A stretch of 63,840 bases of DNA, filler included, from Perkinsus chesapeaki ATCC PRA-425 (GCA_013115145.1; 11 parts of 11 records of this genome joined end to end with filler, not necessarily neighbours in it), one strand, 5' to 3'. Shown: positions 13,199 to 63,434, counted from the first letter of the whole stretch. Translations and numbers: made by a program. The notes: generated by a model from the sequence alone, not told the origin.

Positions 13199-13998
13199 AT
13201 TTTGGGTCCCAAAAGACCACCTTTAATTAAAGGAGTACCACGATCAGAGATACGCTCATCTAATCGATCACGGAGAGATTGCCCGTGTGATAAGACATCT
13301 CGAGTCGAGATTCTCGACCTATAGCGAGCCGAACGGTTCGGCCCGAACCCAGTTAATATTTTCTAGATAATTATCGTATCGCATAACAGGATTTTGAACT
13401 ACGGTGGTTCAACTACTGCAACATACCAACGTTAGTTTTTTCTTAGATATTTGCCGCTGTTATAAATGATCTCTAAGAGATCATGTACGATATTTCCTGT
13501 TATGTCATAGGGATCATGACCACTACGTACATTTGTTTTAGTCAATCTTGAATACTTTCGGTCTTAGTGGATATCGGTGATACCATATTATCTTCATAGT
13601 ATACAGATTCTGGACCCTTGAATTATGACTCTTATCTAGAGATGGAAGAGTTCTAATGCAAGTCTCGCAATATTTGAAACTTGACCGTTATGACCGGGAT
13701 AGCTCCTCGTAACGATACGCCGTTCAAGCTCAACGAAACTTCACTACTTGTTAGCACTTGTCCCTCATGCTTCCATTGGACCCAACTTATCTATGATGAT
13801 GGGATCATTCCACTTTGAAAATGACTACTCATTTACGGCTCGAGGCTTAGTTCGGAAAGTCAACTGATGTCTACAGAACCACCACGCATGTAATGATTCC
13901 CTCGACAACTTAAACAAGCCGAGTGATAACATTTTTCTCAGGATAGTGGCTTGACAGATAAGAAAGTAGCCTTACTACAACTATACAGGACTACCGTT

Positions 13999-15150
13999 CT
14001 ATGGCCGATCAGAGTAGCGAGCGAATTTCACCAATTTACGTTGCATATCAAACGATGAGAAATAAGTGGTGAAAAACGGACGACCCAGGATAATTACAGC
14101 GGTATCACGATAGATCATTTGGAGCACGTACCATCCATCATCATACTTCTGGGCATACTTTTTTGGTGGGATACGTATGACGAGTGGACTCAAAGAATAA
14201 GAACCAACGTTGAACGTCAGGGTAGGCAAGAAGTTGTATGCTGCCTCCTCGATCAGCCAAAGGTCCCCAAGGTTTTTGATTTTTGGGTTTCTACCCGAGT
14301 CATTTCTCACTGACTGACGTATCTCTTTCATGAGGTAGTCTAACTGCGCTTGGGGGAAGGTGAGCTGGGCTGCCCCAGTATCGTATACAACAGCAGCATC
14401 AGACAGCTGTTTTGTAGAAGCTTGACCTTTAGAGCTCACCAGACCAAGACTGTTCAGATTTGTAGTAAAAAGTTCGCTATATTCACCGGTCAACCTCATT
14501 AGAACAGTCATAGTAGTTGGAGCTTGGATAGCACATCGACCTTTCCATTGACCAATCAGAAGTTGCCCACCGAAGGTAACCACGCCCCTAGCCGAGATGC
14601 ATACCGAAACGGCGTACTGTTGCACGATCTTATTATTAAATAGGTCTAATGGTACTGTGTGAGGGTCATAAGTGTCAGGGAAGGCTAGACCGAGAAAGTT
14701 CATAGGTTTCTCGGTAGGTATTGGTGAAGTGAAATCGATGATGAGGCGGAACTGGGTTTTCAGTTTATGGCCACTCACATCAATCACCCCCTCATGCTGC
14801 ACGGTAGTGATAGTCGAACCGTCAGCGAATTGGGTTGTATAATGCTCCATCTTGAAGGGGTCGCACGCACTTACGCAAACATAGCATAGTCTGGGCGGGC
14901 ATGAGCCTTCCCCGTAGACCTCCTCATACCAACCTTTGTATATAACCGAAGTTCCAATCATGGCCGTGTCCATGTAGAGGTCCAATGGTTGACCATCGAA
15001 GCTAATTCCGGTAAGAATGCTATCGTCGAAGGACAGGGAGATTTGCCCGATGATGGAGGGTAGCCCAACCGAAGCTACGAGATAAGATTTGATAGCCGCA
15101 AATCGCATTGAGAGATTGGGAAGGATGACAGACTCCAACAAGGTGGACAA
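13999..15150 (-). CDS. Pepsin-like (A1) aspartic protease, intronless, secreted-type
   Basis: 383-aa ORF with hydrophobic N-terminus, LYMDTAMIGTS and VVYDTGAAQL Asp motifs, FLGLA, and a C-terminal ILGRPFFTTYFSSFD..LVKFA signature. Confidence 0.85.
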   Translation of the reverse strand: MSTLLESVILPNLSMRFAAIKSYLVASVGLPSIIGQISLSFDDSILTGISFDGQPLDLYMDTAMIGTSVIYKGWYEEVYGEGSCPPRLCYVCVSACDPFKMEHYTTQFADGSTITTVQHEGVIDVSGHKLKTQFRLIIDFTSPIPTEKPMNFLGLAFPDTYDPHTVPLDLFNNKIVQQYAVSVCISARGVVTFGGQLLIGQWKGRCAIQAPTTMTVLMRLTGEYSELFTTNLNSLGLVSSKGQASTKQLSDAAVVYDTGAAQLTFPQAQLDYLMKEIRQSVRNDSGRNPKIKNLGDLWLIEEAAYNFLPTLTFNVGSYSLSPLVIRIPPKKYAQKYDDGWYVLQMIYRDTAVIILGRPFFTTYFSSFDMQRKLVKFARYSDRP

Positions 15151-16357
15151 TCAAGTAGAGTCACAAGAGACTACTGCTGACGCACGCGAGAACATCGTTG
15201 GGCGGCGCGTGAATTTCGGGTCGCGGATCATCGTATTTGTTGAAGCCGTAGTACCGGCGACAAAGCCGAGCCTTTAGGGTTTATTTCCTTAACCCACCAC
15301 TACCAGTGGTAGTCTATCACTATGGTTGTCTACCGCGGTGCAAGTGGTACTACCGTGGTATGACCTATTCCATAAGTTCCATGGAAAAAGACTCCGAACT
15401 AGAGACGCTCCACAGAAAAGCGAAATCGCTCCCAGAGGAAAATGAGAACACGATGAAACAATTTACAACTGTGTCCAACATGGGCCATGTTACATGGCGG
15501 AGTGAGCAATATTTCATACACAACACAGTTCTCAAGCTGCACGCTAGTAACCGCCTCGTACGTACTAGCAGTACCATCTACGACTCGACATTGTCGAGTC
15601 AACAACATTCGTCTACGAGACTAACAAACTGGGAAGAGATTCTACCAAATCCACCTCAATTCCTCTAACCTCTCTATTCTCTTGGCGGAACCTATAAGTA
15701 GCGCTATCGATTGTGGACGCTGTCCAGTGAATAGTGGATAATTGAAGGCCGCGTGGGAAAGCACATGATATCCCAACAATTTGTATGCTATTTTCTGCGC
15801 CCGTTTGTCTCCCCGGCGGGGAGTCCCCGCAATTGTGTGCTAAGATCCCTACTAGGAATTGCCTAGCGTTCAGCTCGTGGGAATCAAACTGTGGCATCGG
15901 TGCATAACCCATTAGTAGTATAGGTTTCTTAGGTTGCAACGGTATCGAGTTGTGATGCGATGGTCACAATTGCTGTCTCTCTTTAATAGCCAGCACAACT
16001 TGTCCCTTTCTAACTGTAGCTTCATCAATGTACAGTAGTTGTTCCCCCTTGAAGGGGGCCCCTTCGGATTTTGTTATTGTGTAACACAATAACACAATTT
16101 GTGGTCCAAGTACAACACGAGACTCGTGTCACGAGTCAATACTATAGAGTCTATTATAGACTGTCTATAGTATAGACTCCATCACCTACGAACCACTCCT
16201 TAGACGGAAACGAGTCTTGAGCTATTTATGATATTCCGTATTTATTGTGATAATCCGTCGTAGAATCCCTGATAATGACGATGTGATATCGGCAATACCA
16301 GCATTCCCATCTTTGGGAATGCCCTCGAAGCACAGTTCTATACCTTTCAGAAATCTA

Positions 16358-60830: not shown

Positions 60831-62063
60831 ATGGCAATCCTAGTCTTCGCTCTCTTTGTCGCTTCGTGCCGTGCGGAGCGTGATCTCGCCGATTTGAAGA
60901 ACATGTTCGTAAGCTTTAAGAACGAGTACGGGACTGGCCCTCGGGCAACTTATTGCCGACCCTCACTTCTTTGGTTGCTCGAGTAGGTTCGGTTTCGACT
61001 TTGGCGAGCATGATGCTACGAGAGAGGCCATTTTCCATGAGAACGTGCGATACATCGAGGAGACTAACGCTAAGAGTAGGCACTACTGTGATTAGAGAGC
61101 TATCTGACCGTTAATGTTAAGTCTTTGTGAATCCGACAACTCTTCTTTCGAATGATCTCCACAGCATGAAGTTCAGACCTATCCTATCGCCTTGGTATCA
61201 ACAAGTTCACCCATCTAACCAATGATGAGTTTAGAAGCATGATGTCTCTTAGAGGCCTTGTAAGCCATCGGGCTTCAGGACTTCGATCAAGTACTCTAAA
61301 CTGTTCAATTGTGAGTTGTGATCGGTGTATTCTTTCAGGTGGCAAATCTGATCGAGATGTGTTCAAGTTCACTGGAAGCCTGGATGATCTGCCCAAGTCA
61401 GTTGATTGGAGGGAGAAGGGTTATGTAACCGCTGTGAAGGACCAAGGACACTGTGGAAGCTGTTGGGCATTCTCAGCAACAGGTGTGTAGAGTACGTAAC
61501 TGATGTTGCGTTCTCATTTGTGGATGTCAGGTGCTCTCGAAGGCCTCTATAAGAAGATGACGGGGAAGCTCGTGTCCCTGAGTGAGCAGGAGCTTGTAGA
61601 TTGCAGCGGTTCATTCGGGAATATGTATGACAAATACTTGACAAACTTGTGAGATACTTTGGGTGTTCAGCGGCTGTAATGGAGGGATTATAGACGAAGC
61701 CTTTGAATATGTCAAAGCTAAAGGGCTGGAGACGGAGGCTGCATATCCATATCTTGGCAAGAATCAGACGTGTAGTTCTGATAGCAGTAAACACGTCATT
61801 GAGGTGAATAGTATCGAATCGTTGCCTTAGACGTTTCCAGTGTTACACTATTCGATTATTAGGCCGGAAGTATCGGTTTCGTCGACGTCCCCCAATATTC
61901 CGTGAACTCGCTCAAGGCAGCCTTGGCAAATAACGGTCCTGTTAGTGTAGCTATCGAAGCTGACATGGACATGTTTCAACATTACAGTGCGGGAGTGATA
62001 GACTCTAGTAAATGCATTTTTATTATTACCAGCAATACGACATTGTTGACTGTTTCAGCTGCC
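60831..62063 (+). CDS. Cathepsin L-like papain (C1A) cysteine protease, multi-exon, 3' partial
   Basis: Signal peptide [21 protein letters not shown]-like [69 protein letters not shown] and GPVSVAIEA. Confidence 0.96.
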
Positions 62064-63434
62064 NNNNNNNNNNNNNNNNNNNNNNNNNNNNNNNNNNNNN
62101 NNNNNNNTTAATTAATTAANNNNNNNNNNNNNNNNNNNNNNNNNNNNNNNNNNNNNNNNNNNNCCCATTCTGTGGCAGTATTCAAGACTAACCTTCCGAC
62201 ACGATGGACGGCTACTCTCTCTCTTGGTCATTCTTCACATAGGCCTGAACGCCACGAACGAGTGCTCACAATTACTGCTGATGACCGATACGGCATGCGG
62301 ACCTTCACTGAAAAGGGAACTCTCACGGGAGGTATCGTCAAAAAATTGGGAGTTGAAGGCCTTCGAACCACAGTGGAGGCATTCTTTTTCAAGTTGCCAA
62401 CTCATAAAACACAGTATGCATTGATGTTGGATTCGGCAGGTGAATCTTACGTACTATACAGAACAGACCAAGTTAGTGATCGCGAACATGATATACTCCC
62501 TCCTCGGTAAGTTGGGGACCTCCCATTATCTGATAAGAGGACATGATGAGTTTACAAATACGATATCAGTAGTGGTGCTTGAGCAGTATTCTACCCTCCT
62601 TTTCAGGCTCAAAATACTCGGACATACTGATATGCAAATGAGTGATGATGGTATGATACTACTACCTCCAAGGTGAATCATTCATCTGGTGTAGCCTTAA
62701 ATGACATGTTAGTTACCCTGTGGGCCTTCCGACGTATGAGCAGGCCATTACTCGAGATAATAACCAAGGAGTCACTGAGTTGAACAATTAGTTTTAGAGT
62801 GGTCTACTCAGTGCAAGTTACAGCTTCGGAATTGACGAGTTACGATGGTCCATTATTCATTAATCAGTGCGAGAAACTTCTTCTCATTACGGTGTAGGTG
62901 TCCTTTGTCATCTGTGGCAATCTGTCTGCTCCGTATTGTGTTATTACACGCTGGGCCTTGAAGGACAGAGCGACTCTGAGCAGCGCTCAGAATGCACAGT
63001 GAGCACTCCTCTGTATCTGCTTGTAGAGCTGGATTATCGCTATGATGAAAAGTGAGAACAGCGACACTTGAAGAAGCATGCTTAGCATGGCATGCTAGTT
63101 GATAGGAATAGGCAATTAAGTTATAAAAAAAGACAACTTACAACACTTTTCATATAACAGATAGACACCGAGGACTTCAATTCAGTAGTCCGCTACAAAC
63201 CAAACTAAGGCTTACGTACTTATTAGTGTGTTACGACCCACAACTCGAAACCAGCTCTTATTTTCCTAAGCTTACTTAAGGGTCAATCATATAATGAAGA
63301 AGGTCCCCTTGCTATTATGTCGATATTATTATAATGTGTTTAGTTCGCCTTCGTCCGCTTGGGTGCATCGTTCTTTTTTACTGCGTCAAAGTTCAATAGA
63401 AGTGGTTGAACTTTCAGTTTGGTCATTATCTTTT

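Follow-up and report, generated by a model that had tools for sequence, protein, structure and literature searches.

A recurrent 22-base scar was identified in the window, the whole 63,840-nucleotide stretch of Perkinsus chesapeaki DNA analysed, in which 11 contigs are joined with filler; N positions were left out of the scan. The scar has the form X[1-7]+revcomp(X)+X[2-8], in which X is an 8-mer. The window also holds a retroelement frame and genes encoding a serine carboxypeptidase, an aspartyl protease and citrate synthase. The 22-base scars were located by a pattern scan and are given without strand, as are the nested and long forms.

10563..13222, minus strand, gag/CCCH-protease-RT retroelement frame, cut in two by the scar at 11734; before/after control
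11734..11755, perfect scar, X = GTCTCTAC; brings a stop codon and a frameshift into the protease part of the gag-protease-RT frame
13193..13214, perfect scar, in the retroelement frame as well, at its 5' end
13297..13318, perfect scar
13328..13349, perfect scar
13461..13482, two-mismatch scar
15299..15320, one-mismatch scar
15477..15498, perfect scar
15584..15605, one-mismatch scar
15809..15830, perfect scar
15845..15866, two-mismatch scar
16044..16065, perfect scar
16076..16105, long variant with one mismatch: X[1-7], then X inverted twice in tandem, then X[2-8]
16115..16136, perfect scar
16142..16177, nested pair, by sequence reading: older perfect scar (X = CTATAGAC) split by the perfect scar 16148-16169
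16428..16481, long variant: both target copies exact, inner part 40 bases
16768..16789, one-mismatch scar
16988..17009, two-mismatch scar
17256..17291, doubtful long variant: inner part 22 bases, two mismatches
17350..17371, two-mismatch scar, from a single middle-copy substitution
17577..17598, perfect scar
18912..18933, perfect scar
25770..25791, two-mismatch scar
28321..28342, one-mismatch scar between exons of the serine carboxypeptidase gene (pattern scan and gene reading)
29388..29409, two-mismatch scar, probably within intron 1 of the carboxypeptidase gene (intron assigned by eye)
30752..30773, perfect scar
31084..31105, perfect scar
32266..32287, two-mismatch scar
32580..32601, one-mismatch scar
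34731..34752, two-mismatch scar
35417..35438, two-mismatch scar; alternatively, a left arm with one deletion
46091..46112, perfect scar
55383..55404, one-mismatch scar
56255..56276, scar with a single middle-copy substitution, scored as two mismatches
58333..58354, perfect scar
58843..58864, perfect scar
63076..63097, one-mismatch scar

Across the whole window (N excluded), 16, 7 and 11 scars of the 8-mer form were found with 0, 1 and 2 mismatches, respectively, against means of 0.005, 0.025 and 0.515 and maxima of 1, 1 and 3 in 200 local dinucleotide shuffles. The same scan gave no perfect scar at lengths 6, 7 and 9 to 13. The excess over chance and the sharp preference for length 8 proposed in the initial annotation were thus both borne out. 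All nine of its perfect cases are perfect, and five of its six one-mismatch cases hold, the exception being 56255, which scores two; it had overlooked seven perfect cases (11734, 13193, 15477, 15809, 46091, 58333 and 58843) and two with one mismatch (16768 and 55383). Its observation is confirmed and its interpretation is partly supported.

The geometry of the scars is narrow. In a grid of lengths 6 to 11 and trims of 0 to 3 bases per side, only (8,1,1) and its trivial sub-patterns are conspicuous, and palindromes with a one-base loop number 22 against 0.8 expected, the remaining loop sizes giving 0 to 2. As read from the sequence, the scars are palindromes with a one-base offset, centred on the complement of the base that would have adjoined an element, and an 8-bp target duplication is indicated by the scars rather than by a resident element. 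The 33 targets with 0 to 2 mismatches from position 10383 onwards are all distinct; therefore, the scars are not one repeat family, in line with the unrelated sequences noted initially. No match was found in Rfam. Replication template switching, in which the opposite strand is copied for eight bases between two switches, could write a forward-inverted-forward sequence without a break, but it explains neither the fixed length of eight and the one-base offset on both sides nor the 33 unrelated targets and the excess of one-base-loop palindromes. Tyrosine-recombinase or protelomerase chemistry was set aside by reasoning, as it would invert a spacer without duplicating it.

The scars are clustered, with 14 of the 23 having 0 or 1 mismatch located on one 9981-bp contig, and six of the 11 contigs carry none of this class. 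Mismatches in aged copies lean to transitions (15 to 7). Three two-mismatch cases represent one substitution each, placed in the middle copy; these remove the misfit reported by a single-age Poisson test (p 0.023), which was dropped. None of 31 scars outside the retroelement falls in a long host frame (p 8e-5), whereas two scars lie in coding DNA of the retroelement and break its frame. The absence from exons noted initially therefore holds for host genes and fails for the retroelement.

The retroelement frame provides a before/after comparison. Its paralogue P0122 is a predicted protein forming a continuous polyprotein of 1717 aa, to which the window aligns in frame -2 until 11762 and in frame -1 starting at 11711, with 12 residues set against 50 bases. 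Among the nine frame-restoring lengths (2 to 26), 14 alone falls in register (score +30, 7/25 identical), the other eight scoring -17 to -41. Since the intact paralogue comes back into alignment only when 14 extra bases are allowed for, the scar at 11734 is identified by this alignment as a 14-base insertion into the bare 8-mer, which agrees, at one site, with the net gain of 14 proposed earlier; this sole control is a predicted protein of about 40% identity. Taking out three further scars extends the retroelement frame, an effect equalled by 4056 of 20000 random deletions and hence not significant. The predicted gene P0121 spans the frameshift at 11734 by a false intron, and annotators should note that gene predictors bridge scar frameshifts in this way. 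A diverged copy of the retroelement in runs X2, X4 and X5 skips the region around 11734, the intervening letters not being given.

Contigs from public sequencing runs of two studies match the scars with no differing letters. All 11 perfect scars of the 9981-bp contig are present in run X1, and at least nine of the 11 are found among the matches listed for runs X2, X4 and X5. Enzymatic library preparation is able to produce fold-back chimeras, and one of the runs may be the source of the window sequence. A library or assembly artefact is nevertheless refuted by the recurrence of the same scars in two studies, unless both share the artefact at the same sites; the transition bias, the avoidance of long host frames and the nested events also oppose it, so that its probability is next to nil. 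No 14-base deletion was seen among the 12 of 63 indels listed between the window and the runs, and self-comparison of the window gave no paralogous empty site. Neither a filled site nor an empty allele turned up in the DNA of the window and the near-identical runs, and no related DNA was found in viral and metagenome contigs.

The nested pair at 16142 documents serial events at one place. Two clear long variants and the doubtful one hold both copies of the 8-mer, and at length 8 three such forms were found versus none in 40 shuffles. The left flank of the 16076 variant contains a 7/8 copy of X, and the inner part of the 16428 variant is built from inverted flank sequence, with a local repeat common to both flanks. 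For the 16428 variant, pairing of the flank-predicted tails is stronger at the observed register (score 14) than via the 8-mer, although it would be stronger still at two farther registers (60 and 81); the observed-register score is 5 at 16076 and only 3 at 17256. In 22 standard scars, no alternative register scores more than 9. The long variants would reflect hairpin tails reaching about 30 bases, and they lend further support to the hairpin geometry argued for initially. Local repeats do favour template switching at 16428, whereas the forms with two inverted copies of X would need three switches in a fixed register; template switching is already strongly disfavoured and is considered extremely improbable.

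The targets carry a moderate bias. With both strands of the 33 targets pooled, T2/A7 occurs in 31/66 positions (p 7e-4), consistent with the loose nTnnnnAn resemblance suggested before; in perfect scars alone the signal is weak (12/32). G1/C8 occurs in 27/66 and G2/C7 in only 4/66. The combined motif GTnnnnAC gives 58/132 matches versus 33 at random, with none of 20000 trials as high, G1/C8 having been picked post hoc. The target preference of Hermes is nTnnnnAn (available portion of PMC10368747), and that of the Buster family is nnnTAnnn (PMC3499496, PMC3517528), a central TA that is not enriched here (3/33 targets). The scar targets thus follow, moderately (47% at T2/A7), the nTnnnnAn of the Ac family and not the Buster type. 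Hermes and hobo, of the Ac family of hAT elements, likewise have T at position 2 and A at position 7 of an 8-base target in the accessible parts of PMC10368747 and PMC3030943; the scars also show G1/C8, their bias is moderate, and no element or enzyme was found with them in the window. The nested scar, the long variants with both 8-mer copies and the GTnnnnAC bias are new here.

The element itself was not found in the window. The check for a hAT transposase called for earlier was negative within the window: no transposase family was recognised in 232 of 233 open frames of at least 65 aa from 10383 onwards, the remaining frame being citrate synthase, and no hAT-type DDE transposase with BED and dimerisation domains was found. 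About 52 kb with more than 30 scars contains no convincing candidate for an element bounded by terminal inverted repeats and flanked by an 8-base duplication. The interval 56595-58105 around the aspartyl protease gene has an 8-bp duplication and terminal matches of 10/12; it was taken as chance because lengths 7 and 9 give similar matches (no shuffle was run). No terminal repeat is common to the contig ends, and an atlas search with the 47090-49108 frame gave nothing above 0.9.

This lack of a resident element amid so many scars would suit an element-free origin, in which a nuclease cuts with an 8-base stagger and the ends are filled to one base short, closed as hairpins and annealed in the same way; a filled staggered cut leaves X on both ends, and the long variants are compatible with it. 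We know of no host pathway combining these steps. Fill-in would have to halt exactly one base short at both ends every time, and the target bias resembles that of a transposase, which makes this origin very improbable.

Another transposase that duplicates 8 bp (Mutator-like, Merlin, P or Kolobok type) could also make flank hairpins that enter the same repair route, and the missing hAT gene leaves room for one. Muta1, a Mutator-like element of Aedes aegypti, forms flank hairpins, has duplications of 8 or 9 bp and resembles the present case in that the target duplication governs repair; its duplication, however, leads to precise excision (more than 90% of yeast events) and not to inverted insertion, in the portion of PMC5499845 available. 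Merlin duplicates 8-9 bp and is represented in P. marinus by two preserved frames plus remnants (PMC8101967), although the word "hairpin" occurs 0 times in the accessible text of that paper. The scar length of 8 suits Merlin, whose transposase is of the IS1595 type; the open frames of the window show no transposase. Scars of length 9 or 10 are lacking, whereas Mutator-like duplications range from 8 to 10, and the target bias agrees with nTnnnnAn. Such a mover is regarded as unlikely.

The preferred reading, to which a probability of about 0.75 is given, is that the scars are excision footprints of a hAT-type element, whose flank hairpins were opened and then united by way of the inverted target duplication. 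The element would sit flanked by two copies of X. Its transposase would nick one base into each flank and seal the flanks as hairpins, as is established for hAT enzymes. Each hairpin would be centred on the complement of the base adjoining the element, which predicts the ends X[1-7]+x8' and x1'+X[2-8] exactly as seen. A host nuclease may then open the hairpins 8 or more bases away from the tip, in some cases about 30, which would release long palindromic 3' tails. As both tails would start with inverted X, eight bases of perfect pairing would always be offered, the surplus trimmed and the join sealed with a net gain of 14; where the flanks offer further homology, the tails could pair farther out and give a longer scar.

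Hairpin-derived P nucleotides are found in V(D)J coding joints, whose hairpins are opened at the tip or close to it. The scars resemble these joints, a system named in the available part of PMC5499845, in having palindromic additions from hairpins and differ in tails of 8 to about 30 bases. Centring on the complement of the base beside the element is shared by the palindromic Ac/Ds footprints of maize, Arabidopsis, budding yeast and Candida albicans, whose arms in budding yeast can be as long as 20 nt (PMC5873905, in part) and which show microhomology joins (PMC5873905 and PMC1978519, in part). In the same portions of both papers, hAT footprints are short and varied, those of Ac/Ds coming from one engineered donor site, whereas the scars represent one +14 product via the whole inverted duplication at dozens of natural, unrelated sites. 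Short classical footprints show no clear excess in the window (one base per side, 2 versus 0.95). Among detectable footprints the 8-base form dominates, as had been proposed, and short, varied end-joining products are not the pattern here; precise excisions would leave nothing visible to the scan. In the literature searched, which included few subscription papers, the scar is undescribed in Perkinsus or as a genome-wide signature; the 7+8+7 product may occur among rare footprints of Yu et al. 2004, Lazarow et al. 2012, Huefner et al. 2011 and the Ascot-1 work.

The lack of classical end joining implied by the initial annotation is not supported by P. marinus, which is scored with Ku70, Ku80 and Lig4 in the part of PMC6635534 Table S1 available, a table based on EggNOG orthology in which ligase IV is grouped with ligase I, Artemis is not included and P. 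chesapeaki was not seen. Loss of this pathway is therefore not supported as the cause, and the dominance of annealing needs another one. Tentatively, and with a little less than even odds, the genus Perkinsus, though seemingly keeping Ku and ligase IV, may nick transposase hairpins tens of bases inside and anneal the long tails, so that nearly every excision would yield a deterministic, self-describing scar. No such repair default is known to have been described elsewhere, and the genomes would then be a complete, datable ledger of the jumps of an almost vanished element; if so, the same pattern could be used for typing hairpin repair in any genome.

Departed cut-and-paste transposons normally leave no countable record because their footprints are short and of many kinds. 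When the scar is fixed and spells out its own target, past jumps can be counted, placed, ordered (in nested cases) and examined for target bias from a single genome. The scars also report how a non-model shellfish parasite opens DNA hairpins, which bears on the repair of hairpin ends in cells that lack tip-opening nucleases or do not use them, and they inform the repair outcomes to be expected in the Perkinsus lineage.

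Across the whole window, the 22-base scar X[1-7]+revcomp(X)+X[2-8], which adds a net 14 bases to the bare 8-mer target X, was found in 16 perfect, 7 one-mismatch and 11 two-mismatch copies, against 0.005, 0.025 and 0.515 expected from 200 local dinucleotide shuffles. A scan of the whole window detected no perfect scars of lengths 6, 7 or 9-13, and when 0-3 bases were trimmed from each side, the pattern held only for a trim of one base on both. The targets of scars with 0-2 mismatches from position 10383 on are all distinct (33/33); this set excludes position 790, where the AT-rich first contig has a two-mismatch case that is probably chance. 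The scar is a real, non-random feature, and the enrichment over shuffled sequence, the preference for length 8 and the independence from any one repeat family put forward in the initial annotation are all borne out. Counts refer to this window's 11 contigs; of the 23 scars with no more than one mismatch, a single 10-kb contig holds 14, and six of the 11 contigs have none.

The first contig (1-10282) is AT-rich and of low complexity (GC 27-38%), unlike the other contigs, and contains no scar with 0-1 mismatch. A decayed subtilisin-like frame was read by eye in the vicinity of 1314-1724. This contig may represent another compartment or another source. Elsewhere, the window encodes a citrate synthase 89% identical to its Perkinsus olseni counterpart and two long frames of 287 and 692 aa (46254-49165), neither assigned to a family above the cut-off. 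Two contig ends (41370-41441 and 55145-55217) share an identical 39-base tandem unit, and a 52-base unit is present in about four tandem copies at 18432-18632.

Five public sequencing runs from two studies, one of which may be the source of the window sequence, contain more than 90% of the words sampled from the 9981-bp contig (10383-20363). Among the contig pieces listed, the perfect scars of this contig are matched in 11/11 cases in run X1 and in 9/11 in X2, X4 and X5, with 0 other letters; three long forms, X[1-7]+revcomp(X)+gap+revcomp(X)+X[2-8], are likewise matched by listed pieces with no differing letter. Aged scars carry 15 transitions versus 7 transversions. Frames of at least 200 aa hold 2/33 scars although they cover 30% of bases, and 0/31 once a broken retroelement is excluded. 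An artefact origin is all but ruled out by the two-study presence, the transition bias and this avoidance of long frames. The proposed absence from exons holds outside the retroelement but not within its frame, where two of the 33 scars sit. Short islands at 17778-17905 and 15981-16032 show very high run depth and many loose ends; these unnamed high-copy elements have no match in Rfam. The contig start (10383-10550) is a degenerate GTGTACGA-type satellite, also of very high depth in the runs.

The retroelement (gag/CCCH-protease-RT; 10563-13222, minus strand) provides a before/after control. At the scar at 11734, a stop terminates the 494-aa gag/CCCH/protease frame and reading resumes in a different frame. 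P0122, an annotated P. chesapeaki protein model, is a continuous 1717-aa paralogue whose alignment runs in frame -2 as far as 11762 and continues from 11711 in frame -1, leaving 50 bases for 12 residues and hence a surplus of 14. Nine frame-restoring lengths between 2 and 26 were compared: 14 alone brings the 25 residues downstream into register (score +30, with 7 residues identical), the other eight scoring -17 to -41. On this alignment, the scar at 11734 is a 14-base insertion. If three further scars at the 5' end of the element are discounted, the open frame reaches 929 aa and includes an early Met; random deletions do equally well in 4056 of 20000 trials, and this extension is therefore not counted as evidence. 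Another protein model, P0121, merges an aspartyl protease gene (13999-15150) with the retroelement, bridging the scar at 11734 by an apparent false intron. A second retroelement (41588-45423; CCCH-like, RT, RNase H, integrase zinc finger) lies in three frames without scars.

The enzymes of hAT elements are described as sealing the flank as a hairpin, leaving palindromic footprints with the complement of the element-adjacent base at their centre (PMC5873905, PMC5499845). With the 8-mer duplicated on both sides, the left hairpin would read X[1-7], x8', x7' and onwards, and the right would end in x2', x1', X[2-8]. If both were opened 8 or more bases away from the tip, inverted X would stand at the start of each 3' tail and the tails would pair perfectly; the 7+8+7 product would follow after trimming and sealing. 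Such tail annealing, which we infer as the route, predicts longer products where the flanks hold other homology, and the long forms fit:

Long forms in the window
16076, long form, gap 0, one mismatch
16428, long form, gap 24, 0 mismatches
17256, doubtful long form, gap 6, two mismatches

None occurred in 40 shuffles. The inner 40 bases at 16428 consist of inverted flank sequence. The predicted tails there score 14 at the observed register versus 8 through the 8-mer, with two more distant registers scoring higher still; the best alternative register of standard scars (n = 22, 60-base tails) reaches at most 9. Scores at the observed registers of 16076 and 17256 are below 8. On this model, at least one tail at 16428 was about 30 bases long. 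Serial events are seen at 16148, where discounting the scar restores a perfect older one at 16142.

Outside standard scars, one-base-loop palindromes with arms of at least 8 number 10 versus 0.8 expected, other loop sizes being at background. Among these ten are the long forms and probably also one-sided or decayed events. Palindromes at 10575-10611 (18-base arms around a one-base loop, where the retroelement frame ends) and 30615-30660 (23-base arms, no loop) are possibly other hairpin-repair outcomes. A complex palindrome at 58872-58915 (20-base arms, 2-base loop), alternatively a long form of a 10-mer, falls outside the 8-base rule.

When the two strands are pooled, T2/A7 (31/66, p 7e-4) and G1/C8 (27/66) are favoured among the 33 targets and G2/C7 is avoided (4/66). 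GTnnnnAC matches 58/132 positions versus 33 at random, half of the motif having been picked post hoc. The T2/A7 preference is shared with Hermes (nTnnnnAn; PMC10368747, PMC3030943); the initial annotation had noted a loose likeness to this motif as a hAT preference. Buster elements prefer nnnTAnnn (PMC3499496, PMC3517528), and a target of this type was rejected, a central TA being present in only 3/33. Muta1, a Mutator-like element, shares flank hairpins but differs in its 8 or 9 bp duplications and precise excision (PMC5499845). Merlin (8-9 bp) and Dada (6-7 bp) have been reported in P. marinus (PMC8101967, PMC3706591). The hAT transposase that had been anticipated did not appear: no transposase family was detected in 232 of 233 frames of at least 65 aa from 10383 on, and no convincing bounded element was found in the window. 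The scar behaves like a hAT footprint, with candidate membership only. We put at roughly three in four the probability that the scars were left by the excision of an unseen hAT element resembling the Ac family, with repair by annealing of long tails through the inverted target duplication.

Ac/Ds, Tam3, Hermes and TcBuster are known to leave microhomology-joined hairpin footprints; these are short and variable. Hairpin chemistry is described for Kat1 (PMC4763223). Short classical footprints show no clear excess in the window (one base per side, 2 versus 0.95 expected; retained duplication, 3 versus 1.08). The no-added-base form is in excess (31 versus 14, shuffle maximum 28), an excess that could come from ordinary short tandem repeats. 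These counts agree with the suggestion of one dominant outcome over varied footprints, precise excisions being invisible to a sequence scan. In the mostly open-access literature covered, no paper was found that describes the scar for Perkinsus or treats it as a signature across a genome; a text search of PMC3942097 gave no match.

The initial annotation had also raised the status of Ku70, Ku80 and LIG4. P. marinus is scored with Ku70, Ku80, Lig4, MRE11, RAD50 and XPF and without RAD52 in Table S1 of PMC6635534, whose gene list does not include Artemis, so the table gives no support to a simple loss of the classical end-joining pathway. A P. marinus CRISPR paper (PMC8062965) is silent on this question. 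The repair difference is likelier to be the place where hairpins open.
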